From the IMG/VR virus record IMGVR_UViG_3300020577_010124, positions 64,001-128,000 of that record: a DNA stretch of 64,000 bases, one strand, 5' to 3'. Under the pieces are notes generated by a model that was given only the letters and a program-made list of their open reading frames with translations, did not search any database and had not been told where the DNA came from. Below are positions 1 to 57,110 of this stretch, one piece after another. Numbering within the stretch: position 1 is the first letter of the stretch; every line of letters begins with the position of its first letter. The translations under genes were made by a program, and so were the position numbers. This DNA is from a virus. Its lineage: Duplodnaviria > Caudoviricetes.

Positions 1-1
1 T

Positions 2-2986: not shown

Positions 2987-2988
2987 TA

Positions 2989-6528: not shown

Positions 6529-6529
6529 G

Positions 6530-6730: not shown

Positions 6731-6733
6731 TAA

Positions 6734-9700
6734 ATGGCTGGACTAACCCCATTTTACGGATTGAGTTACTTTACCTTTGGCGACGAGCTAGGCGACGGTA
6801 TCAATGTTCAGCGAGAGATTGATAGATTTCTCGTCATTGATAAACAGCTATATGGCTTGTACGCTATCTTTGGTAATGGAGCCATAAGCGGATGGGATCT
6901 ATCTTTACGAGACGATTTTGGTCAAAACACAATTTCTCTAAATGTAAGTCCTGGTATTGGTATCATCAATTCTCTTGCAGTTCAAACTTCAACAACTAGT
7001 CAAGTTGAGGATCTTCCTCCTAACGAAACAGTTGGAGTTTATGCCATATTGACAAGCGGAACAGTCCGAACGAGAGACGTTCTATTTGCTTGGAGTCGAA
7101 CCATACCTAGCGGTAATGCAGTTCTTTTGGCAAACGTTACAGTTGGAGAGGCTTCTGTAACGAGTATTGATACTTCGGTTCGTCAAGAAATCGGTTTCCT
7201 AGAACTGATTAAGCAAGAAGTCGCTAATCATAAGCATAGAGGAAGTCCATCTAAGATTGATCTTCAAACAGAAACCAGAAATCAGCTTCCTGGCGCTCGT
7301 CTTGAAGATATTGATACTGCAAAAATCACAAGCGGTAGACTCAATCCAGAAAGAATACCTCAGCTTGAGCATGGCGATTTGGCAAACACGGGGCTACTCC
7401 CTCATGCTGCTCTTGATTCATTTACTAGGTTAATAACATCTGGAAATAGACAACTACTAGGCGAAGTAACTTCCGTAGATGTTATGAAGTTGATAACTGC
7501 TCAGTATTATGTTGCTGATAAGCTAAATCTAAACCTCAGCGATCTTGTCGATTTCCCAAACTTGCTTGTATGCTATCCTGGTATTACTCCAAATACCATA
7601 ATGGACTTGGACGCTTCTACAGCCGCCATAGACCTTGTTACAAATTGTATTTCAGGCAAACCCGTAAAGCAAGGTTCTATTTCTTCTATTCTTTGGAAAA
7701 CCAATTCCGCATTCTTTTCAGCATATGATAGAAGTAACGTAAGCATTGCTCTTAATACAGTTACTCTCACTAGAGGCGGCGGCAGTTCTACTGAGATTGA
7801 AGACTTTGAGCAAGTTCCAAGAGCAGGAGTCCCTATTCCTGGCTTCTCAACTGAAGTTCAAGTTGTTACAGACGACGTTGCGGTTACTTCTGAAGACGTT
7901 GCCAGCTTTAGGACTGAAGGTTTTTACAGCGGAAGGTTTGACACGAATCGAGAGTACAGACTTCTTTATACCAGAACTCTAACCCAAAACAAGGATTGGA
8001 GTATTTATGACGAGCTTATCCTTGACGTAAAGAGTATAGCGATCTCTCACGGCGCTGTTTATATGTACTTCATCAATGGAGAAGGGGATACGGCAACGAA
8101 ATCCCAATCATACCTTGTTCTTGGACAAGATGAGATAACAGACAACGTAGATCCTCTTTTGAACAGCTTTGAAAGACGAGTCTTTGATATATCTAAAGAA
8201 ACAAAAAACGATGTTCGAAAGATCGTTTTCTATACAGACGACTCGATAACAAAGCAAGTTTTCTGGGTTGACAACATCTTTGTAAGAAATCAGAATCTAT
8301 TCCCACCAAGCGGATATATTCGTTTCAGATATTCCAGCAGCGTTCCAGTTACGTTCAACTCGATTAACTACGAATCTATTATACCTGATGGTTGCGATGT
8401 TAGAATAAGAATACGAGTCGCCAACTCTTCTGCTTTATTGACAAGAGCGATCTTTACTCCTAATCTACGATCTGGCGATGTCTTCGCTATGCAAGGCACG
8501 GACGCTGAGATTGATGTTATTCTAACCTCAAATACTACAAGAGATAAAACTCCAACGCTTAAGAGTTTGGAACTACAAATCATAGTTGATTCTTCGGTAA
8601 CAGGCTTTACGATTGGTACTGCTGAGGAATGGGACCGTGGTGAGTATATAAATGAACAGCAGAAAAAGGACGACTTCAATCCGTTCATTTCTAACATACT
8701 TCTTCAAGATCCAATCTCTGTAGGAGATCTCTATTACATTTATCAAAATGGCGTAAACGAGAATAGTCCAACAGGAGACGCTGTTTATGGCTTCAGAGGA
8801 TTGTTGTTCAAAGAACTTCTTTCTCCATTGCAAGCTATCAATGTTGCTAACGTTGATTTTGCTCCTGGTTTCAAAAACCCATTTTCTGTATATAGACTTG
8901 AAAATAGAAACTTCATTGTTGCTGATACTGTTAATGATCGAGTCATTGAAACAACTCCTACTGGCGAGTTTGTTCGAGGCATAGGCGGTCATAACGCAAC
9001 CGACTCTGCTTATTTCTATCCGCTTACGGCTGTTTACAATACTCGCAAGGGTACGCTAACGATTTGTTTCAGCCAGTCGATTCAAGTTGACAAGATAGAT
9101 ATAACCAAAATCAAGATATGGATAGGTTCAGCAGGATTGTTGCTTGGTAGTCAAGACACAATACTAGACAATGGAAAGAATGACAAGATACTTGAAATCC
9201 TATTGACTAACGATAAAATAGACCAACTAACAAATCCAGACTTTGACGTAAATGTTGATTTGCTAGCGGGCTTCCTTCCAACTCCATTTAGTTTCCCTGC
9301 GAGCGCAGCAAGACTGATTGGTTCTAAAGGTTTGGCGGTCTTCCTTGGCGACTTTATTTATATGAATGAGATCAATAGACCAATCTATTCAAATGTTCTT
9401 GCAAATGGAAACTGGATGATTGGAAACTCAAGCATAGTTGAGGATTCTGTTTCTCAAGGTTCAACCACTAATATAACGATTGCTGTTGGAGATAGTACAA
9501 CTTTTACAGTAACGGTCGATCCTCCAACCGAAGGTTATCAGCTAACGTGGGAAACAACGATCCCTGCTGAGCTTCAGCAGATAATTACGTTCGATACTCC
9601 ACTGCCAGGAAATCAGGGTACTGTTCATATAAACTCGCCAACAGAAAGTCAGATCAGAACATGGCAAGTTCTATTTACAGCAGTATATGTTGAAACCGCT

Positions 9701-11367: not shown

Positions 11368-14300
11368 ACTTAAGCTACAACCATTCAGCGCTTCAATCAC
11401 TAACACGAAATCAATTTCGTTCAAGCTATCAAACTTGAAGAGAGACAAGAGCTATCGTATATCTTTTGAGAATGCCACTCTTAATCGAGCAATAAGAGTT
11501 GTCTCGTCTAGTAATGGAACATTTGCTGGGGATAAGATCTTCATTCAGAATGTAGAAGAGGTTGAAGGTAAGATTGACCTTTCTCTATACGAATCAGACG
11601 CTATTAGCGTTGTGTCTATTTACGCAAATATAGAAGAAAAGAATGACAGTGATATATGGAAGCTATCTGATATAGCAGCTTTTTCTTTTCAGATAGAAAA
11701 CTCTAAGGCAAGCGGAACCGAGAAGGTTTCCGTATATCCTCCGTTTGTTGGTCCAGAAGACAAAGCAACAGTAATCGTACAAACTGATCCAAACTCGAAT
11801 CTTCAAGTTGTAATTAACAATAAGAGATTCGTTGTCAAGGCAAACTTTAGCGGACAGGGATCTATCTCTTTTAGGCCTATAGATGTTTTTAGCGGTAGTC
11901 CAGCGTCTGCTTCTGCATTGCAGAAATACCCAGTCTACTATAGTAAGTCTAAAGACAACTATACAGAGTTGTATGATTCTGGGGTTTTTGTGCATTTCGT
12001 GCCAGAATCAATGAAAGCTTTACAGGCGACTAACGATCCAGGCGCTCCTGCTTGCGCTATTATTGATCCAACACCAGGCCAAGGCCTAACCATTAACAAG
12101 CTTGATGATTTTTGTATAGACGGATCGGTTGTTGGCCCTCTTTCGATTTTTGATACCGACAGCGAAGACTCTAACTTCTATAACTCGCAAGTTGGATTTT
12201 GCGAAGACATTCAAAAAATCTATCCTGTAGAAGACCAAGAGAGCGTCTGCCGTATATTCAACTCAACATCTTCAACGATTCTTCCTAATGGATCAGCCCT
12301 CGTTGCTTTTGCCTCGCAAGAGACTTTTGCCAATGATCCTTATACAATTCCTACTCTTTCAAGTCGAATATTTGTAGCTCATATCCCTACGTCCCTTAAG
12401 TACAGTGGCAATTTGGTTCGAGACGGTACGGTTATCAAGCCGCCAGCCTTTTATCATACAGCAACTCCATTGGGCATTTCAGACGGAGAGAAATATAGTC
12501 TTACCTTCAGATTTGAGGATGGCTCGTTGTTTGAGGTTCAGCATGAAACAACTAGCAGTTCTATATCTGAGTTTGTTCAATACTTTGTTCAAACAATCAA
12601 TGATAATGAAACCCTTAGTCTTGAAGGCGTTAAGGCAGTTGACCAGGGAACGTTCATTGAACTAAAGTCTGATTTTAGATTTACTATTCGAACAGAAGTC
12701 TTGTCTGGCGACGGAACGTTTACGGCAAAGCTTAGAATAAACAAGACTCTTGATATTTTTACGGACTCGTCTGCAATCTTGGATCAAGGTAATACCCTTG
12801 TGTTCTTGTTCCCAAGATTGGGCTATCAGTCTCATACTATTGTTTCTAGAGATACTGTAAACAATATCATTAGAATAGAAGTGCCAAACGGATTCAATAA
12901 CGATATTGGACCAAATATAGTTTCAAACTTGTATTGCCAACAGTTTGTCATTGTAGACACAGAAACAGATCAGCCAGTTACAGATTTGGTTGAGGTCAGT
13001 CCTTTACCATACATATATGATATCTTCACAAGAGAAGTTTCAGCTATTTATCCTGTCATAACAACTAGAACACTAGAATCAACAGGAGAAACTATAGCCT
13101 ATGTTGTTTGTCAGTCTCCTGTTAATGGCGTGTATCAGTTGTTCTATTATTCATTCAGAGTTGGTAGCGCCGCAGAAACTCCTGGTTGGAAACAACTAAC
13201 AAGTACAAAAGAAAACAAGAATGCTCGTATTAAATGCGATAGCATTGGTAATCTTCATATAGTTTGGGAATCAGATAGATTCGGCGCTACACAAATATAC
13301 TATGGCATACTTGGACCTTCTTCAAGAATAATCAATAATCAAGCATTGATTTCGGCAATAGATAAATCTTCGGAAGCTACGCTATCTACTCCAATTCTCA
13401 GTATTTCAACACCTACCGCTATTCAAAGCTCTTGGACTCGTTTGATAACAAATGCAGGCAAGGTTTCAGTTCCTTCTACCAATAAGGTTGTTGTAGACGG
13501 AAATCCGTTTACAGACGGCGCTATGGCTTTGTATAGATTGACAACTGACGAGTTTGGCAAAGCATTCCCTCATCATTTTGGGCAGATTAGTTTTCAAGTT
13601 TCTTTTGATTTCAAAGTAGACGGAGTAACTTCTAGCGTTTTGGGCGAAGACGATATTAAGAAAGAATTTGAAGATTGGGTTGGACAGTTTGCCCCAGCAG
13701 GCGACAATAAGTATTCAAGAGACAACAATCTCTATACTCTTGATCAATATGCGTCATATTTTGATAGCATGATTCCTATTTTGGGATCATACAAGATACC
13801 GTCTTCTTCAGTGAACATTGTTACAGGCGGCGCTACTGTTACAGGATACAACAACATAAGCGGTAATACTCATGGAGAAATGGGCAGTCCTGCTACCGCT
13901 GCTCACCCAGCGAATATCCGCCATTATATGCTTGCAGTAATGCCAGAAAAGATAAAGTTCAGAGCAAAGAATGCTGAAGCCTATTTCCAGTATTGCGAAA
14001 GAGTCGGAGCAAACTGTGATGGATATATTAATGAGATAGAAGATATCATCTATACAGGTCGTTTCAAGTTAGCTCTTGTTTTGGCAACGAGCGAAAATGA
14101 AGGCACGGGACAAGTTGCTAAGAAGCAGTTCTCTGTTACAAGATTGTTCGGAGACTTTATTGATTTTAGAGCATTCAAGAATATCAAGGTTGCGGTACAC
14201 TATGCAAAGATGTCGCTAGATCAAATCAACGGAGTTCTAAAGCGAGACAAGGAAGTTTTTGAGAATGAGATACGATTCCATAGTAATATAATCGTTACTG

Positions 14301-17300
14301 TTGATAATGAAGCCGTCCTAGGGCAGTCGTTTTTTGCTGATTTTACCGACCAATATGGACAGTTTGACATAGGACTTGGTATGCCTTATGGCGATGGGTT
14401 TGTAACAAATGAATCTATTCCATATCAAGGTAATCTATATGAAGACAAAAAAGTAAGACTCATATTCAATAGTGTAGCTATTGGTCCTCACTCTATTCGG
14501 GTAAATAATAACTATGTTGATGTGTCTTCTTTTGATCGCAATACTAAGCAGATGTGCGTTCATGAAAATACAAGTAACATTCTTACAAACTCTAGTTTTG
14601 ATACGTCAATTTTGCCATATGCAATCGAGACAGCGTTGTTTGACGGATATGCGGCTGTAACCGATTGGACCGTAATAAACGGAGCAATATACAGAAAAGC
14701 CTCAGGAAACTATACTGCTTCTCCTTATACGGGCTTTAGACCAACGGACGGTGAGGCTTGGATAGAATTGACGGGTAGAACTTCGGGAGCTACTGTTTTC
14801 AAGGGCGGTATTTCTCATACTTTCCAAACAAGCATTGGTAAGTCATACTATGTTTCATTTGATCTTTCTAACAATCCAAATAGCTATCTTCAAGGTTCTA
14901 CAGTAACAAAGAAAGTAAAAGTTACCGCTGCTGCGCAATCGGAAACTTTCTCTACAACATTGTCTTCAACCGTTGCTTCTAGCATGAACTGGAAGACGCA
15001 GAACTTCATTTTTGTAGCAACGTCGTCGTCTACAACTCTTGTTTTTGAGAATGCTTCAAATCAATACGGAGATAGTCGAGACATTACTTATGGTCCTCAA
15101 ATTGATAGAGTTCTCATTGTTGTTGGCGAAGATTTGAATACAGAATACGCTTCTTATTCAACAGCGGAAAACTTGGGCATAGATCAAAACGAGTTTGATT
15201 TGAATTATAGTCTCAATGCAACCGACACTTTCTCTCAGATTCCTGTTACGCTCTCCAATACTCTAAGTAATAAAAAAGCTGATCTATGCATAGACAAGAT
15301 AGATAAGGTTCATATCGCTTGGCAGTCTAATAGAAACAACTATTGGGATATTTATTATGCTGGATCTCGTATAAGAAACATTCCTTTCCGTTTTGAAACA
15401 CGAATAACAGGAGCTAACAGCAATAGCATAAACCCTTCTATCAGCGTTGATTCTAAGGGTCGTAGATTTATTGCATGGCAAGATAATCGAAATGGCAACT
15501 TCCAAATATACTCAGCAGTTTCTAAAGTCCAAGACGACATGCTAAGGGATTCTTGTAAGCAAGACGAAGTTGACGAGTTTATATATGAATGGAACTCTAC
15601 ACTTGATCCAACTATTGAACCTTACACAAGCTCTATTTCTCAGTTGAACTGCGGTGTTGAGTTTGAGTTTATCGCTCCGTCAACAGGTTCTTTCCATTTC
15701 CATTTGCTTTTCTATGAAGATCGAGAATATACAAGTCTTTATAAAGCCATAACATCTTCAGACAATCTAGACGGATGGAGAGTCAATGACGAGCAGTTGA
15801 CATATAATGGTCTATCAGCAACTCAAGACGCTTCATATGCAATAAGCTATGTGCCATCATATGAAGATGGTTTGTCTGGAAAAGTTCTGTATGTTGTTGT
15901 TCAATATCAATTGAATGCAAATCCAATAGATCTATCTAAGTCAACCAATGTTCAAGTTGTTCAACCTTATAGCGGTCTTAATTTGCAGACAGGACATTTT
16001 GAGGCTAGCACTCTTGTAAGAGCTATGTTGGAGTTTGATGATATTTCTCCTGTAAGCGTTCGAAAGCAAAGCGCCAGCGATCTAAATGTTTCTCCGTTTA
16101 CGGGAATGTCATTTGTTTCGCCGCTTACTCGTCTTTCTGGCGTTGTTAAGGGAGATAGAGTAAAGAGTATTCTTCTACACTTTGACCCTGTAGGTACGTC
16201 AGGAACTATAACTGCTAAGGTTGCATTTACGTCCCCAATTGCTGCCGTATTTGTAAGCGGTTCTAATCTTGTTCTTAGTCAAAAATACTATGGCTTCCCA
16301 GGCGTTAAGTATTTGGAAACAAGCGCTGCTGGGCTTGAAGCATTTGATACCGTTAGTATTTCTGCGGACAGAAAGACATTAACGGTTCATATGGTTGTAA
16401 ATCCATCCGTGGACGAGATGAGAGTTTTGCTTGAAGACGATACGACAACTATTGGAGAAAATCAGTTTGTATATTACTGTCCAACTGAGCAATCCTCTCG
16501 TTGTGACGCAAACTGTTTGTTTGTCAATAATCAGTCGATTTCCAAGAGCGCCCATTTTAGAGTAACATTCTATGCTGACGCTCAAAGAACAACGCCAATA
16601 ACCTCGTCGTTTACTAAGCTTGACACTTTCGGATGGAAGGCTGGCCCTGGCTCATTCCCAACCAACGGTATAACTGTTCTTTCTGGGCAAAGAGTAAACG
16701 TAGCTTATATTCCAGAAGTTTTGCCGTTTGAGTTGTATGAATCCCAAAGTAAAACAGAAGATAGTAGCACTTTGAGACAGCCTCTTGTATGCGGAGTTAC
16801 ATATCATGTAACTATTGAGAGCTATGTCAATGATACATTTGCGGTAGAGTCTCAGTTTGAGTTCTTATGCCCTTGCAATAGAACTAATGTAGATTTCTGG
16901 AATACGGACAGAGATTCGCAAAACTGGATATGTAGCGGTCAGGGTTTTGAGGATTACAGAATAACCGAAACAGATAATCAATGCTTGTTCCCTATTGTAA
17001 ATGTAACAAGTTTTGATATGTTCTATATTGTTTGGCAAGATTTTAGATTTACTAGAATGCTCCCAACACAGCCAGCAGTATCTCCTGATTATTTTGTAGG
17101 ATTGTATGATGCTTCGGAAGACGTATTCAAATGCTCAGGACAGGGTGGGTATGATCGAAGATTGACGGTCTTTGCAGAAGGTGGAGTTGGAGTTCTTTAT
17201 GACGCTTCTGTTGTTATTGATCCATTCCAAAATATCAATATGATCGTTCACAATGGTAGTGATTTGTATGTTCAAAGATGCAGCTTTGGTTGCAAGATTT

Positions 17301-18478: not shown

Positions 18479-18493
18479 CTAGAGGTAAGATAG

Positions 18494-20095: not shown

Positions 20096-20106
20096 TGGAG
20101 CAATAA

Positions 20107-24655: not shown

Positions 24656-24657
24656 CA

Positions 24658-28700: not shown

Positions 28701-31700
28701 AGTTTCTGACGAGTTTAGCGCCGCAAATCCTGATATCGCTATAAACTCTCTTAATCAGATTTGCGTTGTATATGAAACAACTCGCTCTGATTATACAGAT
28801 ATTTCTGTTATCACTAAGAATTCTGAGGGATGGTCTGAGCCTTATTTGCTGACATCTAATCTATATGATTCCTTTAATCCTAAAGTAACTATTGACTTTA
28901 GAAATAATACACATGTTATTTGGGAAGATTATAGAATTGATCAGCCTCAGATTTATTACTGTCGTCGCAATGCGGCTAACGGTCAATGGGAGAGCGCTGT
29001 ATTCGGCGGTTCTGATACTCAAATAACTTCAGAACCAGTTGGAGCAAAGCGACCTTCTATAACTACTCAAAACATGAACGTCTATGTTTCTTGGACTGCG
29101 TTCAAGCAAGACGGTTCAACGTCTATAAAGATGGCAATGTATGACGGTGGACAAAAAGCATGGAACTCTAGCGGCCAAGGCGGAATTGATTTTGACGTTT
29201 CAGGACTCAACTCGAATCGAGCAGATAACTCAGACATCATTATTGATCTTAAGGGTCAAGTAGTTGTTGTATGGAACGACATTGTTGGATTCAACTATCA
29301 GCTATTCAGCAGATTCGTAAACTCAAGACTGGTATTTGCTAGCAAGGTTCTACAGCTAACGACAGGTACGTTTGATTCTCGCCATGCTCGTTGCGGTTTG
29401 AATAGTTTGACTGGCGATATTTATGTTGTATTTGAAAAAGAGCAAGAAAAAATCATATCAACATATGATCCTTATTTTGTTCGAGAAAGCGATGTTGGCT
29501 TTAAGAGTCCGTCTGTCTACCTATTGAAATGGGACGCTCATAGACAAGTTTGGGAAAGTAGTAATCAAGACCGTCCAGGCAATATGTCTTTTAGCTTTGA
29601 CGTTGAGTTTGATTTTGGATTGCCTCGACAATCTTATAGACCAGTTATTTCGGATAAGTTTAGCGGTCCTCTTCATATATTGTTTGAAAGCTCCGTTGTA
29701 AGCCCTCAACAACAAGTAATCCTAAGCAAAGATGTATTTACTCAAATACGAGATATTGTTTATGATCTTGTTTTTGAACCAGTTTATAATGTTGCAAGTC
29801 ATACCACCTATGAAGACGGAGAGCTTTCTCTCGATGGTGGTTTGAGCAGAAAAGAAATACGCTTTGGAGACTTTTCAGATAATCTTTCGTGCAGAATGGT
29901 CATAGGAAGTCTAAGCTATTATCTTTCAGACGCAGTTGATCCATTCTACATAAATCTTGTTTCGTCTGCTACAACTAATATGCCAAATACGGAAGTCTTT
30001 GCTGTTGCATCAAATAACAACGGAGACGCTTGGCTAGGTACTCAGTTGGGACTGTTCTTTTATCAGAAAGAAAGTAATCAAGCATACTTGCTTGACTCCG
30101 ATCTTTACAACATAAAGGACATAGCCGTTTATGATATTTCTTTTGGCAACAAAGGCAATATGTACTTGGCTACTTCAAATGGGTTGTATGCAAGCTCTGA
30201 TCATACTTATTTCTTTAGGCTAACAGGCAACCTTCCGTCTAATCCTAAGTCAATAGATTTTGATAGCAACAACCAGCTATTTGTCGCAGCTAGCGACGGA
30301 CTTTACATTATAGACGTAAATTCCATTTCTAATAGACTAATCGTTACTAAAGAAATCGTTTCAAACACTGATCGAACTATCGCTATACCTGCTGGGGATA
30401 TCAAGAAGATAACTACAAATGAAGGTCTTCCAAGTAATACCACAAACGTAGTAAAAGTAGACGCAAACAACGTTGCTTGGGTTGGAACCGACAACGGGCT
30501 TGTTCGATATGGCTCGGGAGAAGTTAGCGTTTTCAACACCAAGAATGGTTTGAACTCTAATAAGGTTAATGATATAGCCATTAGAAATACAGCCATACGT
30601 TATATTGCTACTACGGCTGGTATAAACAAGATGACGGGCGTTTCTGTTTCTCCGCTTAATTTTGATAATGCAAACTCGCCACCAGCTTCTATAAATCAAG
30701 TTGGAACAGGCGATATTTTGATACCTGTCTTCAACAATACTAGAGCTATAAGATGGAAAGACCCAAATATTCTTTGGGTAGCATCTAACTATAACCTTTA
30801 TCAGATAACTTTCGTTGAAGAAGGTTTCACGACAGAGAAGACTGAGATCACTAAGTTCTCAAGCGGAGACTATACTCTAAGTCCTGTTGTTACAGAAAGA
30901 AATGATGATCTAAGAACTTTCCGATTGATTGGTTTGGAAAACAGAACTATCCCAAGAAATGCTTTGTTTGAAGTTTCAATTAATGGAAACAAGATTACAA
31001 GGGGATATAGATTCTCTCCTGATAAGCAGCTTATACGCTTTGACTACCCTCTTTCAGAATCAGACATTGTAAAAATCAATGTTCGTTTTGATATTGAGCG
31101 ACTTGGAGACTTTGCTCAGAATAAGGCTCAAAAAATCGCTATTGGCAATAAGACAACAACGATTGATAAGCTTATATCTGCAAGCGGAAGCATTTATGCT
31201 CTCACAGGTGGAGATATCAATACTCTTCAGATAAACGACGAAACAACAGATCTTCCATTCGATAGAATCATCCTCGACAAGACTCCGCCAAGAGGCAAAA
31301 TTCATATTGGAAACCGTAGAGAAAGAACAACCTTCGAGGTTACTGTTACTCCTCTAGAGGATGATCCTTATGGAGTGTTTGACGACACTTCTGGAATAGA
31401 TAAGATGTTCGTTTCTAATTTTACGAACTTCACAAGCGACGGAGAAACGCCGCTTGAGCCTATGGTCTTTACAAGATTCTTGCTTCATAACATAGGCGAT
31501 ATTTTTGATACTGTAACTAAGCAATATCAGTTCACTAGCGGAATCGGTAGAAGATTGTTGCAGTATGAGCCAGTCGGAGGAGATCCAGTTATGATAGCTG
31601 GAACTGCTCAGCCTGCAAATATGTACAAGTTCAATCCTATAACTCAAGTTTGGGAAAAGATTGATACTCTAGACGTAATAGGCGGAGTTGCAAACCCTAA

Positions 31701-43078: not shown

Positions 43079-43079
43079 T

Positions 43080-46595: not shown

Positions 46596-46599
46596 CTAA

Positions 46600-49500
46600 A
46601 TGATATTAACTAAAGCATCAGTTTTTCTTAGAATCGTTGGCAATCCAAGTTCCTTGGTAAGTTTTGTAGTTCCAGAAGAAGGCTTTGTTTCTTTTGATGC
46701 AGCCAATTTTTCCAAGTTAGAACAAGGTGATCCATACGTTGTATTTGATGTTGTTGCGGACGACTATTATGGTAGTGGTTATCTTTCTGTTGGATACAAA
46801 AGACTTGAATACCTATGGCCGACTATTACGTATCCTATTACAGCAGAAAAGACAGGAAAGTATAATCTCTTTATCCGAGTCAAAACTTCGGGCGAGTTTT
46901 TCAACTTTTCTCTTCTTATCAACGGTGTAAATCTTCTTGATAAGATAGTTACGACTCCTCAAAATCAGTGGACATGGATATCTCTTCCATTGGTTATAGC
47001 TGACAAGAAGAAGTTTGATCTTTCAATCATACCGAAAACCGAAGGTTGTTTGATTGATAGTTTTCATATTTCTGTCAACGATACTTTGCCAGATGTAATA
47101 GAATACCAAAATAGTTTTCTAACCGTACATTTTAGAATGTATGAAATAGATTCGGATTATCAACCAAATATATCATTGCCAATCTACGGCTACAAGACTT
47201 CTATAGAAGATATTCTCGATGATAACTGGTACAATTTTTCTCTTGAAACATTGCCAGCTTATATTTCCAAGACATTCAATCTTCACTATGCGGCAACGTT
47301 GTTTGTTTCTGGATCGAGCGAGAGTCTTTACATTATGTGGGACTATGCTCAAGACAATGGATTTACTTTAGATCCATATCTTCAGACTTGTTCTCTTGTT
47401 TTGGATTCTGATACAAAGACATGGAGCATTGATTGCGAAAAGAAGTTTGCATTGCGTCTTTATTCTTCAAGAGACGCTATAGACGAAAACGCATGCAAAG
47501 CAATCGTGCCTGCTTCTGCTTTGACTACAAAGACCGTCAAAACATTTAGCACGAATACTAGCCCAGTTTTTGTAAATACTAAAGCCGTTCCTACAATAGA
47601 AAATGAAGAAAAAGTACAGCTTAGTTTGCCTGATAGAATCGTTTCTATTGTTATGGACCAAAGCGGTTCTCAAACATGGAATGATAGTAGCGGCGTTCGC
47701 CATGAACTAGCAAGAAGAATGGTAGATAAACTAAACGCTACTTATCCAGGCGATTTGAAATACAATCTTGTTAATTTTCAATCAACTCCTATAAAGATTA
47801 ATTTCTTTGCGGTAACTGAAAATGACAACCTCAACACAAGCGATGCAGGCGCTGCGGCAAGTGAGTTTTTTGAAGACCAAGAGAGCGGATACGCAGGCGT
47901 TAGAATCGTTCGTAAGCAAGGTTCTTATCCAACTGGCCCTCTTGACGGCGATATCGTAACTGAAGGTTTTCTAGAAAGAGCATTTAGCGATGGTCTTGAG
48001 GAAGGCCAAGAGTATTACTACGCAGCCTATACATTCAACTCTTCAGGAGTTTTTAGCGAGGGAACCTTTATTAAGGCAACTCCTAGAGAAAGAATACTTC
48101 CTCACGGCGTTGGTAATTTTACAAGCAGAGTAATAATAGGAACAGGTGTTCGTAGAGACGAAAACACAATTGGTCTATGGCATTTCAATGAAGGCATAGA
48201 TCAAACCATTTATGATTTTAGCGATACTTCATTTACGCTTACTAGCAGCGATGATTTCATATGGCTTAACTTTAGCGATGTTCCAAGCGGAACAAGCGGA
48301 GTTAGATTCAATGGAACAGCAACTCGTTTTGTTGGAACCGACAGTAACGGAGATTTTGTAAAGAGTCATTATACAATGATGGCTTGGATATATCCGTTTG
48401 ACTTCAACTCTAAGAGAACAATCGTTTCGAGAGAATCTTCTTCTACTAGTGCTGTTGGATTCCGTTTCGGAATCAATACCAATAAGACTTTGTTTTTTAC
48501 GTTAGATGATTCAACAATAGCTAGCTCTTCTGCTTTGCTTACAGCAAATCAATGGAATCATGTTGCCGTTACCGTTGATGTTAGCGGAAACGTCGCTAGC
48601 TTTTATATCAATGGATATTTTGCTGGCTCAGGAACATTGGCTCAGGGAGCTAATCATTCTGTTGCCGCAATGAACTTGTATATTGGCGGAAGACAAAGCT
48701 CGTTCTTTGGAAAAATGACGGAGCTAAGTATTCATGATAGTTTGCGTTCTGCTGCATACATCGCTGAGGCGGCGGTTCAGCCTGAAACTTCTACTGATAA
48801 ACTTCTAGACAATGGCGATAGGCTTGTTCTTCTAACTTATGTTGTTTCTGACGACTTTAATTATCCTGGCGGAACTGTAAGAATACTTAGAAAGGAATCC
48901 GTTGGGCCTGCGGTTTTTGATTATGCTACAAGTTCCTCGGGTTCGTCGCCTCAGTTGGTGTTCAAAGGATTTGGCGCTGGACCGTCTCATGAAAATGACG
49001 GAGATGTAGTTTATGAAACTTCAGCTTCTTCTGGTTCATTTACTATAGCTCTTCCTTATGATTATGTTCTTGACAGAACCTATAACTATCGAATATACTC
49101 TAGTAATGTATTAGGAAACTTTAGTTCAAACTCTGACTCTCCAACTATACCAATCAAGATTCCTAATTTCAAGACGAAGGCTGCTCGAAATGCAGCTATC
49201 TCTATGCCTCTAATCGCTCCTGTAGAAAATGCTACGCTTACGATTGGAAATCATAAGAACTATATAACATGGGACGCAGTAACCGACGAAAATGCCGAGC
49301 AAGTTTTGGTATATTGGTCTGATTCTGGATTCCCTATTATCAGTAATGACCAGGGCGTAGACGCAGGAGCCATCTTGGTTTTTAGCGGCAAGCCTTCGGA
49401 TACCTATGTAGTAGATAGAAATATAGATAATCAAATTGTTAGTTACTATGCTATTGTTGTTGCAGATAAGTATGGATTTTATTCGCAGCCAGTTTTTGTA

Positions 49501-52500
49501 TCTGGCGTTCCTGTATCAAATGCTTTTGAGGGGAATATTCCTCTTCTTACTATTAGCAACCTTGGTTATCAGATTGTAAACGAGAATGCTCTTAGCTTGT
49601 CATGGGACGCTCCTGTAAAGTTCCAAAAGGATATTGAGGCTTGGTTTGATCAAAGAGTTGCATTGTACGCTCAGATTACAGACGAGTTTGGCGCGCCTAT
49701 TGCAGATAATAGTCAGATCAGCTTTACAGCAACTGCGTCTGTAGGGTCTGCTCAACTTGCGGAAGATGTTTTCGGAGAAACGATAAGCGGACAAGCATTA
49801 GTGCCTGACGCTAAGAGTTGTTTTATTCTGTCTTCTTCTTCCATTGGTAACGGATTCATTCGCGGCGTTTTCAGAATGACATCTGACCTTGATATACTAT
49901 CCGCAATTAATCAACTTTCAGCAGATGTTAGAGTTTCATATAGCATCCCTGATAGAGACAACCCAGGCTCGAACGTGTTTGAGTTTACTTCGCTTCCTGT
50001 TCATATAGAGATGGACAATCCATTCTCTATGGAAATGCTCAATATTGGCGATAATAACGGATTCTTTGGAGAAGGAACGTCTTCGGGACGAGGCTCTAAG
50101 AGACGAAGAAGAGGAAGTGGCGCGGCTCCTCATGTTGGTTCAGCAGCTACAAGCGCTGGCGGTGATACCGTTAAGGTTCTTTGCAAGAGAACGGTTCCGT
50201 TAGACGACCAATCCTTTATATCAAGCGGTGGTTTGGAGTTCGATCCTGATAAGTTCAAAGAATTCCCAGGCTGTTGGATAAGAAGAACAAGACCATTTGT
50301 ATCAAGAGTTGTTATTCTATATCGAGGAGAAGCGATTTCAAATGCTCCTGATTGCGACGTAGCAGTATTTGAAGCCTCGGACCCTCAGTGCGATCGAGAT
50401 GATAGCTCTAGCAATCCATGTTCTCAAAGCGGCGGAGGAGCTTCTAGTTCTCCGCCTGAGTTTGTTCCAGGCTTTTCTTCTCGAAGAAGTCGTTCGGTAC
50501 AACCTCCTGCTACTTCTTTGCCTTTCCGAACAGGCCTTCAGTTACTTAATGACGGAACAACAAAGCTCGTTTCATATGTTGATATACCTTTGAAAGCGCC
50601 TAGAACTCCGCAAGCTATCATGCTGTTTGCAAAAACAGGCTACAACGGTTTCTTTGCTCGCAAGAAAATGTATGTTGTCTTTGATAATATTCTAAGAATT
50701 GAAACAACTATTGAGCCGCCAGAATCAAATTGCATTGACGTTGCGGAGCAACAAGCTAAAGTCTACCTTATTGATCCAGATAGTACGGACGTAGAAAATC
50801 CTAGAAAACTGGCCGTTCCAGACAGTCAGATTGTTCGTTGGGAATTGAGAAAAGGAACAAGCGGTAAAGATAGGCCATTCTACTCGACAGATAATGTCCC
50901 TACAGGACCAGGCGTATTTTCTTATACAAGAAGCGGAAGCGCTAGAAAAGTATTCTTCGGTCCAGCATGTGGTGTAACATGGCTAACTTATGTTCCATGT
51001 CCAGGCAATATAATCTTGTTGCCTGAGCTTTATGCTATTAAGGCAAGCGTCATATACGACGGACTGCACGCCTTTGAAGAACGTCCAGCTATAGTTTACC
51101 CGCCAGGAGACGTAAGAGGTTTTGGATCTCGCTTCCTCATGCAGATGCCAAACTTTGTAAATGACATATACGCAGACGGATATGATCTAGCTCACGTTAC
51201 TATTTATCACGACCCTAATATTGCTAGTGGTCAGATTGCTGATTGTTTCAAGCAATGCGCAAGAGATTTCAATAGACCAATCTTCTCTTTGGGAAATGGT
51301 CAGATTGTTGATATCGAATCAGGTGGCGACTTTGAGATTCTTTATGGAGATTCGTTGCAAGTTACGTTTGACGAGGCGTTAGACGAGTATGTTATAACGA
51401 ATGCTTCTCAAGAAATTGGGTTCGCTCAAATACCTCTTGCTCAAAGCGGTAATCGCACTGACTTTTACATACGAATCAATAAGTTCCTTGGAAGACCGCA
51501 ACCAGTCAAACCAAATGATAATCAAGACCAAGATCCTCTTAGCAGCACAAATCAATGTTCTTGTATAGAAGTTCCACCTGGACTTTCTAGTAAAACTGAT
51601 TTGAAGATAATAACTGGAAAGACCAGTATTATGTTCAATGGTCAAACAAGATTCTTGTCAGGCGGAGGAGATCTAAAGAATGGCGTTCCTCCAACAACAA
51701 TTGCTCTTAGAGAGCCATTGGATATTTCCATTGTTGATATTCGTCGTAATGGAGAAAGCGTTGAAAAGATCCTATGCGACAGTTTGAGCGTTCATGAGTT
51801 TATTGTTGAAGTAAAGTTCAAAGATAAAGCGGTTCCAAATGGAACACCTGTATTCCTAACTGTTGGCGGAATTAATCCAGAGAAGATTGTTCTTTTCTCT
51901 GATACTATTTTCACGCAAAAACTCAATGATCCTATACTTAACCCAGAGGGCAATAAGAGAAGCTTTGCTTCATTCTTTGTTTATCCATTCAGCGCTCAAG
52001 CTGCATTCTCGGGTCAAGTACAAGCAGAAACCAACTATGATAAGCGAGGCGACGTTGTTCGTAGTATGACAGCTTGTATTACGATCAAGTATGATCCTTC
52101 AGAAAAGAAGCCAGAAGCAACAGTAACTCCTGAAGGCGAAATAAGTAGCGTCTTTAGCGGATCGCTAGATGTTTATGACACGTATACGGATACTTGGTCG
52201 CAAAAAGCTCTAATGAAGTACCCAAGAGGTTGCTTGACTCTTGACTGGTCTTTCGATGCGTATGGAGAACAACTCTATGCGATAGGCGGACTTAATGGAA
52301 AATCAATCTTATCATACAATGAAATGTATGATATTGCAAACGACATATGGCATACTAAGAAACAAATGAGAGTTGCTAGATTCTACCATATGTCTGTTCA
52401 AGATTCAGGCTATATCTACGTATTCGGAGGAATCGTTGCGGACGGTTCTGTTCTTGCTATTTCTCGTTCAGTTGAACGTTATGATATCGTAAACGATGTT

Positions 52501-55500
52501 TGGGAAGACGTTGCTAGCTTGCCTATATTTGGAGAGAATCCATACGGCGTAGCTATGGGCGCTTGCGTAAAGCTTGATAATAAGGTTTACATAATCGGCG
52601 GAATCAGAAAGATTGGACCGCAAGGCAGCATCGAAGCTATGAACGACAGAGTTCTAGTTTTTGATTTGGATACTCAAACATGGAGTTGGAGTTCAGTATA
52701 TGAGGATCTTGATCTAGCGCTATTTACTAGAATATCTCCTACCGCTTTTGCTGACAAGAATGGCGGGTTTATTCATGTTCTTGGAGGAGCGGTAGCGGGA
52801 GAACGAGACGCAGATACGGGCGCTCAATCTCTTGAGTTCTTGACTGATACTTTCAACATCAATATCTCAACCTTTGCTGTTGTTCAAGACGACTATTTGT
52901 ATGATAACTTGCCTAAGCCTCGCTATCGTAATGGTCATGCTCAAATCGGAGACATTCATTATTTCTTAGGCGGAACAAATGGTAAGTCTCAAGTTCTAAA
53001 TCTCTTTGAGAGCGTAGAAGAGACTTCTCCAGTCTTTACCGAGCAAAGACTAGAAAACATGCCTAAAGCAAAGACGGCTTTTGGTTCTACGTCTGATAGT
53101 TGGAGATATGTCTATGTTGGTGGCGGACTAACAAGCGGTAGGCCTGAAGGTTTCCTTCAGATATTGGCAGAGGCTAATCCTGGTTCTATAAGATTGGATG
53201 GGCAGCAGTCTGCGACAGTAAATATAGAACTAAAGAATGACGTAGGCGAACATCCTAATAAGAGTATTAGAGTATTGGTTCAAGGTATTGTTCTTTTCAA
53301 GAATGCTACAGCAAATCAAGACGGTTCTGGTGGGACTAATTCGCAGCAACAATCTGCAAACAGCGCCGCCCGAGATGCTTTGATATATCCTGTTGTCTTT
53401 AGTTCTAACGACTTTGTTATAAACAATGGCGTTGGAGCAACTATAATGTTGCCAAGATCCGAAGACATACTCAAGAAGGTTGATGAAATCAAGAGAAAAC
53501 TTGGAATTGTTGATCCAGTAACGGGCGATAACGGACAAGCAGAAGACAATACGCTTGTTATCAATGAAGGCGAAATTCGCAATCCATATACTATCAAAGT
53601 AAGAATAACTATTCTTGACGGATTCTATTATGGTCAAACCGTAATAGACATCAAAGATAATCAGGATTCAAGCGTATCTACAACTCCTGTTGAGTTACCG
53701 CCTCCAACCGAAACAACAACTACAGTTAGCACTCCTAGCGGGCCTCAAACTACGACTACAACTACCTTCTCTGGATGTAAAGAGGCAAGCGGCAGTCAGT
53801 TTGCTCCTATAGCTAATCAAGGTTCGCAAACGCCTACAACGGACGGAAGCAACGTTGTCATCGATCAGGGTTTGCAGCAGTCAGATAATCCTATATTTGA
53901 CCTAAACCCTTCTCAAGCTCCTCAACTTGATAGTCCAACGGTTTCATACTTCAGCGATATCGAATGGATACCTCAAGTTATTATTAGCGTAGATAACGGA
54001 GATTATGGCAGCATTATCAAAAATCTCAATAGAATGCGTAATGAAATACCATTTGGAGCTTCGCAACTTTATGACGCTCTTTCCAAAACAGCTTCTCTTA
54101 TGCTTGGCGAAGAACTTGATTCGTTTGCCAAATCAATCTATGTAAACACTGACAATGAGGAAAATCTATCCTTTGTTACTGTAGATACTGCTATTGAAGA
54201 TATACAAGCGGTTGACGGATTTGCGGAAACGCCTGTTTTGATAAACAACCTCTCTGTTGTTTTCCCTCTAACTCTATCTGCTCAGCTTGCTAGAACCGAT
54301 ACTGAAAATCTGGATAGAATCTCAAATGAAACAGGCGGACAAAGCCAAACGGTTATTGACGCAAGTTATATTGATGAAGTTCTAAACAATGCGATAGGAC
54401 GAGTAACGGGCTCAATTGGATGGGGCATTTATGAGTGCATAATCGACCTTGGCAAGAACTCTATTATCAATACGATAGCAATTGAGTGCGAGCTATATCC
54501 AAATACAGAGGGCAATTGGAAGATATCAACGAGCGAAGACGGATTCAACTATTCAGTTTATAGTGATCCATTCAATGTCAACAAAGACATACAACTAACA
54601 AACGTTGTTGGAAGATATCTAAAGTTCTCTATTACTCTTTTGAGCGGACTTAGCGCTTCCATTGAAAGCGAGTATGATCTTACTCCAACCCCAGGCGTTC
54701 CAGCTATAACTGGTATATTGATTGATTATAACATCCCAACGGAGAGTTTCATATATATGAACTCAGACGTATTGGATCGTAGTCCTCAACAAGTCGCTAT
54801 TGCTGTATCTGCAAACAGACCGTTGCTAAGCGAAATAGATGTTGGCGTTACAACTAGTAAGTCAACTAATTGGTCAGATTATTATAGCGGTTCTCAACCA
54901 TCAGTTGATAGATTCGGAAAGATATTTGTTCCTATTCGTTATACACAAACGCAAGATCATACTCTAGACGAATCTCTAGAAAACATTGACGGCTTTATGT
55001 GGAAAACAATCTATGGAAGATGGGATGTTACTTCTCAAGTAACAATCAAAGACGAAGATAACAATATCGTTGATCCAGATATTTATAGGCTGTATCCGCA
55101 AGAAGGAATGGTTATTTTTAACTCCAAGCAAACTGGTTCTTTCAGTATTTCTGTAGAGAATGCTGGACGAATCAAAGTTGGTTTGAGAGTCTTGAATAGC
55201 GATTCAGAACAAGCGGTTCAGATAAACGGTCTAGGCTATATGTATAACACCAATGTATTCTTGCCACCGCCTCTATCTCAGCGCCCTCCAACCGTTACGG
55301 ATTTCAATATTACTCCATCTGAACTGACAATATATCAGAAGATTGGACTAACCTATAGATACTTTGACATTAACCAACTTGACGAGCAGCTTGATAAATC
55401 CGAGATCAAATGGTTCATTAATGGTGTTGAAGTTGAGTATCTAAGAAATGTTCGAACATGGAATGATATAACAAATACGGAAGATCCTATTTGGATTTAT

Positions 55501-56340
55501 GCGTTTACTTTTAGCTCAAGCGATGTTCCTAGCGGAACAACCGTAGAACAATACGCTCGTTCTCGCGGCGAAAGCATACTAAAAGTAGGCGATAGCGTTT
55601 ACGCAACTATTCGAGCAAATGACGGAACCCTATTCAGCGAAGTAGTTCGTTCTCAAGCTCTTAGTGTTATAGAGGCTCCTCCGTTTATCTCTAACGTTAT
55701 AGTAAAGGGAAAGAGAAATGACGGTTCGCTTCAAGATACTGTAACAACTGCTACAAGAGCATTTGCTAGCTTTGCTTTCTTCCAAGACGGAACAGGAACA
55801 ACCAAGTCGCAGATCATCTGGTTTGTCAATGGTATTGAGTTCAAGAGAGGAAACCTCAATGAAATCGTTGGAGGTATTTCCAACAACGAAATTATTGTTG
55901 GAGAAATCAAGAACAACATTCTTGGTATAACTTTGGGCAATACTATTGAGGTTCAGATACTTCCAGTTTCAGGTTCTATTATTGGAAATCCAGTAACTAG
56001 TTCTCCTATCTCTGTAGAGAATGATCCTCCTTCTGTAAGAAATGTAGCAGTCAGCCCAAGTCCAACAGCTTCGTCGTCGTCAGCATTGCAGCTAACGTAT
56101 GTCTACGTTGATGTAGAATCTCAACAACAAGGCAGTACGCAGAACGACCAGAGTTCCGTCAAGTGGTATCGAGCCGCAAGGGGTTCAAGCGAGTTTGTAG
56201 AGGTTAGTTCTTTGCAAAATCAGAAGATTGTCCCTGCGGTGAATACCTCTTCGGGCGAGATGTGGAAAGCCGAAGTAATTCCATTCGACGGAATTAGCGT
56301 TGGCACAACTGTAGTAAGCAATATCATAACGATTATTTGA
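46600..56340 (+). CDS. Giant (3246 aa) virion protein with split VWA domain, LamG domain, FN3-like domains, Kelch propeller and C-terminal Ig-like repeats
   Basis: MIDAS VMDQSGS at ~47650; LamG GLWHFNEG...TMMAWIYP...WNHVAVT...FYING...FGKMTEL (~48165-48770); Kelch YAIGG, YVFGG, YIIGG, HVLGG, YFLGG, YVGGG (~52165-53140); second VWA half LYDAL...TDNEEN...ETGG (~54000-54350). Confidence 0.75.
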   Translation: MILTKASVFLRIVGNPSSLVSFVVPEEGFVSFDAANFSKLEQGDPYVVFDVVADDYYGSGYLSVGYKRLEYLWPTITYPITAEKTGKYNLFIRVKTSGEFFNFSLLINGVNLLDKIVTTPQNQWTWISLPLVIADKKKFDLSIIPKTEGCLIDSFHISVNDTLPDVIEYQNSFLTVHFRMYEIDSDYQPNISLPIYGYKTSIEDILDDNWYNFSLETLPAYISKTFNLHYAATLFVSGSSESLYIMWDYAQDNGFTLDPYLQTCSLVLDSDTKTWSIDCEKKFALRLYSSRDAIDENACKAIVPASALTTKTVKTFSTNTSPVFVNTKAVPTIENEEKVQLSLPDRIVSIVMDQSGSQTWNDSSGVRHELARRMVDKLNATYPGDLKYNLVNFQSTPIKINFFAVTENDNLNTSDAGAAASEFFEDQESGYAGVRIVRKQGSYPTGPLDGDIVTEGFLERAFSDGLEEGQEYYYAAYTFNSSGVFSEGTFIKATPRERILPHGVGNFTSRVIIGTGVRRDENTIGLWHFNEGIDQTIYDFSDTSFTLTSSDDFIWLNFSDVPSGTSGVRFNGTATRFVGTDSNGDFVKSHYTMMAWIYPFDFNSKRTIVSRESSSTSAVGFRFGINTNKTLFFTLDDSTIASSSALLTANQWNHVAVTVDVSGNVASFYINGYFAGSGTLAQGANHSVAAMNLYIGGRQSSFFGKMTELSIHDSLRSAAYIAEAAVQPETSTDKLLDNGDRLVLLTYVVSDDFNYPGGTVRILRKESVGPAVFDYATSSSGSSPQLVFKGFGAGPSHENDGDVVYETSASSGSFTIALPYDYVLDRTYNYRIYSSNVLGNFSSNSDSPTIPIKIPNFKTKAARNAAISMPLIAPVENATLTIGNHKNYITWDAVTDENAEQVLVYWSDSGFPIISNDQGVDAGAILVFSGKPSDTYVVDRNIDNQIVSYYAIVVADKYGFYSQPVFVSGVPVSNAFEGNIPLLTISNLGYQIVNENALSLSWDAPVKFQKDIEAWFDQRVALYAQITDEFGAPIADNSQISFTATASVGSAQLAEDVFGETISGQALVPDAKSCFILSSSSIGNGFIRGVFRMTSDLDILSAINQLSADVRVSYSIPDRDNPGSNVFEFTSLPVHIEMDNPFSMEMLNIGDNNGFFGEGTSSGRGSKRRRRGSGAAPHVGSAATSAGGDTVKVLCKRTVPLDDQSFISSGGLEFDPDKFKEFPGCWIRRTRPFVSRVVILYRGEAISNAPDCDVAVFEASDPQCDRDDSSSNPCSQSGGGASSSPPEFVPGFSSRRSRSVQPPATSLPFRTGLQLLNDGTTKLVSYVDIPLKAPRTPQAIMLFAKTGYNGFFARKKMYVVFDNILRIETTIEPPESNCIDVAEQQAKVYLIDPDSTDVENPRKLAVPDSQIVRWELRKGTSGKDRPFYSTDNVPTGPGVFSYTRSGSARKVFFGPACGVTWLTYVPCPGNIILLPELYAIKASVIYDGLHAFEERPAIVYPPGDVRGFGSRFLMQMPNFVNDIYADGYDLAHVTIYHDPNIASGQIADCFKQCARDFNRPIFSLGNGQIVDIESGGDFEILYGDSLQVTFDEALDEYVITNASQEIGFAQIPLAQSGNRTDFYIRINKFLGRPQPVKPNDNQDQDPLSSTNQCSCIEVPPGLSSKTDLKIITGKTSIMFNGQTRFLSGGGDLKNGVPPTTIALREPLDISIVDIRRNGESVEKILCDSLSVHEFIVEVKFKDKAVPNGTPVFLTVGGINPEKIVLFSDTIFTQKLNDPILNPEGNKRSFASFFVYPFSAQAAFSGQVQAETNYDKRGDVVRSMTACITIKYDPSEKKPEATVTPEGEISSVFSGSLDVYDTYTDTWSQKALMKYPRGCLTLDWSFDAYGEQLYAIGGLNGKSILSYNEMYDIANDIWHTKKQMRVARFYHMSVQDSGYIYVFGGIVADGSVLAISRSVERYDIVNDVWEDVASLPIFGENPYGVAMGACVKLDNKVYIIGGIRKIGPQGSIEAMNDRVLVFDLDTQTWSWSSVYEDLDLALFTRISPTAFADKNGGFIHVLGGAVAGERDADTGAQSLEFLTDTFNINISTFAVVQDDYLYDNLPKPRYRNGHAQIGDIHYFLGGTNGKSQVLNLFESVEETSPVFTEQRLENMPKAKTAFGSTSDSWRYVYVGGGLTSGRPEGFLQILAEANPGSIRLDGQQSATVNIELKNDVGEHPNKSIRVLVQGIVLFKNATANQDGSGGTNSQQQSANSAARDALIYPVVFSSNDFVINNGVGATIMLPRSEDILKKVDEIKRKLGIVDPVTGDNGQAEDNTLVINEGEIRNPYTIKVRITILDGFYYGQTVIDIKDNQDSSVSTTPVELPPPTETTTTVSTPSGPQTTTTTTFSGCKEASGSQFAPIANQGSQTPTTDGSNVVIDQGLQQSDNPIFDLNPSQAPQLDSPTVSYFSDIEWIPQVIISVDNGDYGSIIKNLNRMRNEIPFGASQLYDALSKTASLMLGEELDSFAKSIYVNTDNEENLSFVTVDTAIEDIQAVDGFAETPVLINNLSVVFPLTLSAQLARTDTENLDRISNETGGQSQTVIDASYIDEVLNNAIGRVTGSIGWGIYECIIDLGKNSIINTIAIECELYPNTEGNWKISTSEDGFNYSVYSDPFNVNKDIQLTNVVGRYLKFSITLLSGLSASIESEYDLTPTPGVPAITGILIDYNIPTESFIYMNSDVLDRSPQQVAIAVSANRPLLSEIDVGVTTSKSTNWSDYYSGSQPSVDRFGKIFVPIRYTQTQDHTLDESLENIDGFMWKTIYGRWDVTSQVTIKDEDNNIVDPDIYRLYPQEGMVIFNSKQTGSFSISVENAGRIKVGLRVLNSDSEQAVQINGLGYMYNTNVFLPPPLSQRPPTVTDFNITPSELTIYQKIGLTYRYFDINQLDEQLDKSEIKWFINGVEVEYLRNVRTWNDITNTEDPIWIYAFTFSSSDVPSGTTVEQYARSRGESILKVGDSVYATIRANDGTLFSEVVRSQALSVIEAPPFISNVIVKGKRNDGSLQDTVTTATRAFASFAFFQDGTGTTKSQIIWFVNGIEFKRGNLNEIVGGISNNEIIVGEIKNNILGITLGNTIEVQILPVSGSIIGNPVTSSPISVENDPPSVRNVAVSPSPTASSSSALQLTYVYVDVESQQQGSTQNDQSSVKWYRAARGSSEFVEVSSLQNQKIVPAVNTSSGEMWKAEVIPFDGISVGTTVVSNIITII

Positions 56341-57106: not shown

Positions 57107-57110
57107 CTGC

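Follow-up and report, generated by a model that had tools for sequence, protein, structure and literature searches.

Apparent domain-within-domain insertion in the giant proteins of a probable marine megaphage, including a VWA domain sequence divided into two pieces

The 64,000-nucleotide stretch of viral DNA analyzed here (the window; bases 64001 to 128000 of the linear IMG/VR virus record IMGVR_UViG_3300020577_010124, 170,562 bp) is occupied from position 1 to position 56340 by an unbroken run of plus-strand open reading frames (ORFs), eight of which encode proteins of 994 to 3,246 amino acids (aa), and it raises the question of how proteins of this size have been built up. Pfam recognizes only scattered modules in them, namely, LamG and Kelch in the 46600 protein (proteins are designated by the window position at which their ORF begins), fn3 in the 34013 protein, DUF642 in the 11357 protein, and an Ig domain plus one Reg_prop repeat in the 25729 protein. 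The original prediction, made from the letters of the window alone, held that new modules are grafted into the loops of conserved scaffolds instead of being swapped at the termini. The analysis reported here indicates that intradomain insertion, a reading which includes the divided VWA domain of the 46600 protein, probably accounts for part of the size of these proteins. At the level of sequence, such insertion is evident in the anchor domain of the 34013 protein, in a propeller-blade loop and the hairpin of HFR module 1 of the 11357 protein, and in DUF642 and an HFR module 2 loop of orthologs of the latter.

A near-identity DNA search returned no match. Metagenomic protein collections contain hundreds of relatives of the giant proteins of the window, so that homologs with shorter or different inserts could be sought. 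Among 35 homologs of the 11357 protein, every large length difference between full-length forms is internal and falls at one of five recurring sites, and the termini are conserved with the exception of a different C-terminal tail in P0251 and P0252. These recurring internal sites are considered the best support for insertion into loops, and the recovery of homologs with shorter, longer, or different inserts at the same sites bears out the predicted grafting of modules into conserved scaffolds in this family. A blade motif profile, searched in the 11357 and 25729 proteins, detected four strong blades in the former (residues 613 to 674, 1298 to 1357, 1350 to 1411, and 1869 to 1937), which by this measure are scattered along its sequence. 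Local alignment over the blade junction was uninformative, since one blade can be matched to another in any register. In the contiguous blade array of the 25729 protein, approximately 25 aa separate the blade motif from the W..SGQG strand, and the corresponding loop of blade 3 in the 11357 family is found in four longer forms (Table 1). Spacing of this kind confirmed the apparent position of the HFR1-HFR2 cassette inside a propeller-blade loop that grows in steps. Scattered blades had been predicted for three proteins: the prediction holds for the 11357 protein (613 to 674, 1298 to 1411, and 1869 to 1937), is contradicted by the 25729 protein, whose blades are contiguous (938 to 1200), and was assessed by eye only in the 6734 protein, where NHL-like blade motifs occur at residues ~720 to 760, 880 to 900, and 1120 to 1179 with an Ig-like stretch between them.

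The HFR cassette itself appears to have received inserts. Four HFR copies share an ending composed of a YY.V.I strand, a turn, and an [ES].QF.F.CP-type strand. In HFR module 1 of the 11357 protein, KVLYVVVQYQL, the last strand but one (to residue 1519), is followed by approximately 180 residues and then by ENQFVYYCP (residues 1701 to 1709), which matches the final strands of other HFR copies, e.g., ESQFEFLCP and QQVFYCP. Alignment of P0251 and P0252 to the 11357 protein stops at residue 1528 or 1490 and restarts at 1701 or 1706, with nothing between these blocks in P0251 and ~38 residues in P0252; at this site, P0251 reads RLYYVQITS, a nine-residue turn (DDGSNMRTL), and EKQQVFYCP. These X-free homologs confirm, as originally predicted, that a domain of ~180 aa (the X domain) is apparently seated in the last hairpin of the Ig-like HFR module 1, a short turn of 9 aa taking its place in both homologs. 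The same HFR module pair also occurs close to the C terminus of the 25729 protein (window 33244 to 33891), so that the cassette serves in one protein as an insert and in another as a terminal addition.

In HFR module 2, a 25-aa loop near residue 1800 bears a Laminin_B domain in eight orthologs; in P0244, the ~200 extra residues of the blade loop contain such a domain (Pfam, residues 1879 to 2011) within the HFR2 loop. In P0237, DUF642 is interrupted by Laminin_B (residues 1206 to 1331), and DUF642 profile positions 59 to 142 follow at residues 1330 to 1430. The Laminin_B module is, accordingly, used at two insertion sites, and three levels of nesting are apparent in the 11357 family, with a blade enclosing the HFR cassette and the cassette enclosing the X domain or Laminin_B.

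A comparable arrangement is presented by the anchor domain of the 34013 protein, which had been predicted to contain an FN3 array and a second insert relative to a compact paralog, the 6734 protein. An insert-deleted profile, which retained only the columns corresponding to residues 1 to 100, 715 to 800, and 880 to 960 of a 50-ortholog alignment of the 34013 protein, was run against all 326 open frames of the genome. Residues 1 to 225 of the 6734 protein matched profile positions 1 to 235 in a single, uninterrupted stretch (74 bits; E value, 2.3e-22), and no other of the 326 frames scored. Profiled singly, the three segments scored 44, 8, and 21 bits against the 6734 protein, and BLAST comparison of the two proteins yielded three weak colinear matches. 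The single-stretch match implies, in agreement with the prediction, that the 34013 protein harbors inserts of 614 and 79 residues compared to its compact paralog. At the first junction, the 6734 protein displays a strand, a short turn, and a strand (VGVYAILTS-GTVRTRD-VLFAWS), by virtue of which the FN3 array looks as if it has been placed in a hairpin turn. The AlphaFold2 (AF2) model of the 34013 protein, based on the 50-sequence alignment, had a mean predicted local distance difference test score (pLDDT) of 84, with values of ~90 flanking each junction and across the FN3 array of insert 1. This array is matched by Pfam fn3 (E value, 2e-19), and VIA-align recovered FN3 folds within residues 117 to 643 of the model (Z, 13 to 14.6; root mean square deviation [rmsd], 1.4 to 2.2 Å per domain); such matches dominated the VIA-align output, which was uninformative on the fold of the anchor.

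Both inserts are constant in nearly all of the ~50 orthologs of the 34013 protein, insert 1 measuring 592 to 685 aa (with one exception, at 813 aa) and insert 2 measuring 74 to 250 aa, and length variation in this family results from the replacement of the final ~50 to 140 residues by ~400 to 490 others. The FN3 insert is, thus, old and fixed in a family that is now diversifying at its C terminus. The 46600 family likewise varies at its C terminus and at its N terminus (274 aa or ~2,000 aa). P0060, P0065, P0085, and P0095, which are 4,600 to 5,030 aa in length, possess ~2,000 extra residues ahead of the N-terminal VWA piece, indicating growth of this family at the N terminus too. The proposition that insertion takes the place of terminal swapping is not sustained, given C-terminal exchange in the 34013 family and variation at both termini in the 46600 family. 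We propose a mechanism in which a conserved scaffold domain would keep its fold while one of its surface turns takes in a module or a whole cassette of them, and in which the inserted module could itself take an insert. The inserts would provide extra binding modules (FN3, lectin-like, LamG, Kelch, and Laminin_B) on a scaffold with unchanged assembly contacts, and insertion would act beside terminal module exchange, not in its place.

The 46600 protein poses the same question in another form, since the sequence elements of one VWA domain are borne on two pieces (designated here the N and C pieces). The N piece contains IVSIVMDQSGS, with DQSGS at residues 353 to 357, and the C piece contains FGAS, TDN, and ETGGQ. 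These motifs are located where the original prediction had placed them, and the split in the sequence is real; the pieces may close into one domain, as predicted. No contiguous VWA domain of ~180 aa was found, the two pieces being 2,040 aa apart. Pfam VWA_2 matches the N piece only, at profile positions 3 to 52 of 107 and at 15.9 to 18.6 bits, which is under the 27-bit cutoff (the per-genome E value at 18.6 bits is 3e-4). All five metal-site ligands are invariant across the two pieces: in each of 53 homologs, DxSGS retains its D, S, G, and S, and the Gly of G-x-S, the Ser (S/T) following it, and the Asp of [TS]-D are conserved in 102 of 102 C pieces, split-gene forms included. Protein language model features (ESM Atlas) pointed to VWA families for both pieces, these being the nearest named clusters in the case of the N piece, which has the strength of a lead only. 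PDB sequence searches with either piece or with a profile of the 46600 family alignment detected no VWA domain, and comparison of the family profile of the joined pieces with one bona fide VWA protein (P0260) was not significant.

The AF2 model of residues 2197 to 3246 of the 46600 protein had a mean pLDDT of 75.5 (65 to 90 in the C-piece region), and it displays four parallel strands alternating with helices in that region. Model residues 260 to 413 align, with four strands only, to VWA domains over 127 to 131 residues at an rmsd of 2.4 to 2.8 Å, the matches being 4fx5_A (Z, 8.6; chain residues 99 to 235), ITIH1 (6fpy_A; Z, 8.5; 334 to 476), TFIIH p44 (8ebs_E; Z, 8.4; 110 to 241), and Ssl1 (4wfq_A; Z, 8.3; 175 to 310), with scores which count as middling on the search tool's own scale. 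A Foldseek search with the entire C-terminal model was dominated by Ig arrays. Coverage of the C piece by the VWA chains starts only ~50 residues into the VWA domain and continues through to the end of that domain. If the VWA domain of TFIIH p44 begins near residue 60, as we presume, the portion of the fold missing from the C piece would be its first ~50 residues, which is what the N piece encodes. The C piece is, thus, likely to represent a VWA domain modeled without its first ~50 residues. Directly after it (residues 2609 to 2713; window 54424 to 54738), a jelly-roll resembling CBM32 or F5_F8 type C lectins was modeled (4a42_B, Z of 8.7; 3ggl_A, Z of 8.3), beyond which FN3/Ig tandems extend to the C terminus.

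The likeliest reading is that an N piece of ~55 aa (strand A with DxSGS, helix 1, and strands B and C) and a C piece of ~150 aa, which bears the Ser and Asp ligands and all other parts of the fold, would constitute one metal-binding VWA domain; assembly would take place in cis, over a distance of ~2,000 aa, or, in the clade with split genes, between two chains. On the basis of the conserved motifs and the model, completion of the domain from its two pieces, whether in cis or in trans, has about an even chance of being correct. A more specific proposal, which we advance tentatively and hold to be somewhat short of an even chance, is that of a naturally split VWA domain with a MIDAS (an adhesion site dependent on metal ions), whose 55- and 150-residue pieces would join as a metal-dependent clasp that either shuts a giant loop of binding domains or joins two virion proteins or subunits.

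The homologs of the 46600 protein reveal both fused and divided forms. When the last 847 residues were used as a query, 554 related proteins were retrieved; the two pieces are carried together by 51 homologs, at a distance of 1,701 to 2,890 aa. At least 12 protein clusters begin with Met and a leader of 8 to 20 residues just ahead of the Ig domain, a start equivalent to residue ~2197 of the window protein, and Pfam detected no VWA domain in these homologs of ~1,000 aa. They were considered as compact, insert-free VWA proteins and rejected as such, as they start at the Ig domain and are devoid of the N piece. Proteins of 1,070 to 1,730 aa, along with P0018, were similarly rejected as forms with a shorter insert, as they begin inside Kelch or LamG and resemble truncated fragments. 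The gene context of the short C-piece proteins is known from a single locus, L002, a 103-kb IMG/VR contig on which a 2,039-residue ORF aligns to residues 275 to 2188 of the 46600 protein and includes DQSGS, and a downstream ORF of 1,037 residues aligns to residues 2198 to 3245. The upstream stop codon precedes the downstream ATG by one base (TAA-T-ATG). The VWA pieces can, therefore, be encoded on two polypeptides, and a domain closed around a looped-out insert becomes only one of two possibilities. The downstream ORF also contains an in-frame TAA at codon 62 (NDKTAI*PVLF; L002:9997-10190), which could represent a sequencing error, a pseudogene, or readthrough. P0027 was the only query that yielded an IMG/VR locus; IMG/VR scans with the N terminus of the 46600 protein, P0030, and P0036 gave no match, nor did P0036 in one metagenome scan, and no relative was identified among GenBank phages when the two ends of the 46600 protein served as tblastn queries.

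A number of these observations weigh against the interpretation offered here. The FN3 insert of the 34013 protein, being ancient and fixed, provides no evidence for ongoing growth by insertion, the blades of the 25729 protein are contiguous instead of scattered, and the putative virion role of the giant ORFs has been deduced only from domain types and gene neighborhood. As regards the VWA domain, the structural scores of the C piece (Z, 8.3 to 8.6) are middling, Pfam and PDB sequence searches returned no VWA match for this piece, none of the 51 homologs has the two pieces nearer than 1,701 aa or in a compact form, at least 12 protein clusters of 1,010 to 1,054 aa are devoid of the N piece, and the pieces of L002 are found on adjacent genes, such that the C piece can exist without an N piece in cis. 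The last of these points lend themselves to the main rival explanation, which we regard as unlikely, that the two pieces never form one domain, the C piece being a self-sufficient, reduced alpha/beta domain of four strands, the N piece belonging to another module, and the split being a relic of an old rearrangement. The C piece does occur alone on its own polypeptide in the short clusters and in L002, AF2 folds residues 2197 to 3246 without the N piece (pLDDT of 65 to 90 in the region) and adds a local strand, VSYFSD (model residues 251 to 256), right before the helices, and sequence profiles do not recognize the piece as VWA. However, the invariance of Ser and Asp in 102 C pieces and of DxSGS in 53 N pieces is hard to explain if the metal site were never assembled, and the VWA chains leave the central strand-A slot of the C piece empty, the N piece supplying exactly those elements.

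Completion of the VWA domain between molecules, whereby the N piece of one subunit would enter the C piece of a neighbor in a domain swap that joins the subunits, is deemed rather improbable. Any complementation in the split-gene clade must take place in trans, and 1,700 to 2,900 aa of rigid, bead-like domains could hinder a return in cis; yet conservation is equal in the fused and the split forms, as would be expected of assembly in cis or in trans alike. There is very little likelihood, in our estimation, that all of these proteins are ordinary tandem mosaics, in which the split halves would reflect chance motif likeness or small subdomains and the inserts would lie between domains and not inside them. 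DUF642 adjoins a linker and its two flanks need not share one fold, the anchor domain could consist of several small subdomains, and the blades of the 25729 protein are plainly tandem. Such mosaics are, however, difficult to reconcile with a single-stretch match (E value, 2e-22) that spans both anchor junctions, with the strand-turn-strand arrangement of P0251 and P0252 exactly at the X-domain site, and with a DUF642 Pfam profile broken by Laminin_B at positions 58/59. Insertion into scaffold domains, accompanied by a VWA domain that may be completed from its two pieces, is held to be the probable interpretation.

Table 1. Positions of the features discussed and observed forms of the blade-3 loop
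Feature	Residues or loop length (aa)	Window position	Strand	Basis or proteins
Anchor domain of the 6734 protein, compact and without interruption	1-225	6734..7408	+	Insert-deleted profile, E 2.3e-22
Propeller blade, 11357 protein	613-674	13193..13378	+	Blade profile, E 1e-27
DUF642 lectin-like domain, optional, 11357 protein	1075-1254	14579..15118	+	Pfam, E 8e-14; absent in P0251, P0252
Blades 2 and 3, 11357 protein; blade 3 apparently interrupted after the IYS strand	1298-1388	15248..15520	+	Blade profile, loop spacing
HFR module 1 minus its last strand	1432-1520	15650..15916	+	HFR copy comparison
X domain	1521-1699	15917..16453	+	Absent in P0251, P0252
Last strand of HFR module 1, ENQFVYYCP		16454..16492	+	Match to other HFR final strands
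HFR module 2	1713-1842	16493..16882	+	HFR copy comparison
Rest of blade 3 (NWICSGQG...) and blade 4, 11357 protein	1855-1937	16919..17167	+	Blade profile, loop spacing
Array of at least 5 contiguous blades, 25729 protein	938-1200	28540..29328	+	Blade profile
Anchor segment 1, 34013 protein	1-100	34013..34312	+	Segment profile matches 6734 residues 1-103, E 3e-13
Insert 1, six FN3 domains	101-714	34313..36154	+	Pfam fn3, AF2, VIA-align; absent from 6734 paralog
Anchor segment 2, HKH motif, 34013 protein	715-800	36155..36412	+	Profile comparison with 6734 protein
Insert 2	801-879	36413..36649	+	Absent from 6734 protein
Anchor segment 3, 34013 protein	880-960	36650..36892	+	Segment profile matches 6734 residues 179-224, E 4e-6
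3246-aa giant, putative virion protein carrying the split VWA sequence		46600..56340	+	One open frame; Pfam LamG aa 584-722, Kelch aa 1855-2130
VWA N piece: strand with DxSGS, helix 1, next two strands (predicted)	348-405	47641..47814	+	Pfam VWA_2, conservation
Region between the pieces: FN3-like, LamG, unassigned domains, Kelch propeller, Ig-like, Thr-rich linker	~2,040	47815..53937	+	
VWA C piece (predicted): G-x-S loop, [TS]-D strand, TGGQ	2447-2606	53938..54417	+	AF2 model, VIA-align, conservation
Blade-3 loop with one HFR module	247-256			P0253, P0255
Blade-3 loop with two HFR modules	317-356			P0250-P0252
Blade-3 loop with two HFR modules and X	483-544 (483-501 in all but P0239)			Window protein, most orthologs
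Blade-3 loop with two HFR modules, X, and ~200 residues more	674-735			P0240, P0244, P0246, P0247

The source of the window is probably an uncultured marine megaphage with a genome of ~0.5 Mb, since orthologs of the giant proteins are found on contigs of 465 to 502 kb, several of which derive from Tara Oceans. Taken together with these contig sizes, a CheckV completeness of 34% implies that the record covers about one third of the megaphage genome; the remaining two thirds may carry additional anchor-domain paralogs. Domain types and gene neighborhood suggest that the giant ORFs encode virion appendage proteins of the baseplate or tail-fiber type. Situated among these structural genes are four glycosyltransferase genes, two of the GT4 type and two of the GT2 type (window 10270 to 11367 and 56342 to 58953). 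The 46600 protein contains a Thr/Pro-rich linker, TTTTVSTPSGPQTTTTTT, at residues ~2371 to 2390 (window 53710 to 53770), and the region in which it resides (residues ~2348 to 2445) ranges from 25 to 651 aa among orthologs; linkers of the virion are possibly O-glycosylated. Two neighboring proteins of ~530 aa (window 18494 to 21684) are paralogs of each other, sharing 24% identity over 479 aa (E value, 3e-22).

Nested insertion is already known among adhesins. The textbook example of a Russian-doll architecture is that of the integrins, in which the alpha I domain, a VWA domain, is inserted between propeller blades, and the beta I-like VWA domain is inserted in a hybrid domain that is itself inserted in a PSI domain. 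The VWA domain of these eukaryotic receptors is, however, a guest and not a host, and there is no homology to the window proteins beyond fold classes. In the pilus-tip adhesins RrgA of Streptococcus pneumoniae and GBS104, the sequences of domains D1 and D2 are each split, the chain of either domain folding back on itself; between the two is inserted a VWA domain with a metal site (D3), which in turn has received two inserted arms (PMC7893114). Nested, noncontiguous domains are, thus, common to these adhesins and the window proteins. The VWA domain of RrgA and GBS104 is, nonetheless, an insert with short arms, whereas that of the 46600 protein would be an interrupted host, divided by 1,700 to 2,900 aa of whole domains or between two genes, and no sequence relationship was detected between them. 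Among phages, a carbohydrate-binding module is inserted internally in the evolved Dit (distal tail) proteins of siphophages, lactococcal ones among them (PMC6669499), and this likewise represents an adhesion-device scaffold with an internal insert and with coexisting insert-bearing and insert-free versions. While evolved Dit proteins have one module of ~100 to 200 aa and belong to small siphophages of Gram-positive hosts, the megaphage proteins exhibit multidomain cassettes, up to three levels of nesting, and propeller, Ig-like, VWA, and anchor scaffolds. Literature searches turned up neither these megaphage proteins nor a split VWA domain. What sets the present case apart is the depth of nesting, the graded series of blade loops, and a VWA domain sequence broken either by ~2,000 intervening residues or by its distribution over two genes.

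The series of ~25, 250, 350, 490, and 700 residues in one propeller loop documents the stepwise accretion of domains in nature with unusual clarity. Should the split VWA domain prove to reassemble, it would represent a natural split-domain connector of structural interest, and the view of phage adsorption would be unchanged. Unannotated proteins of 2,000 to 5,000 residues abound in megaphage genomes; they become readable as a few conserved scaffolds with optional inserted modules, and metagenomic orthologs alone suffice to locate the insertion sites. This offers a practical route by which giant proteins may be annotated and by which the parts that bind the host may be told, as an informed guess, from those that build the particle.

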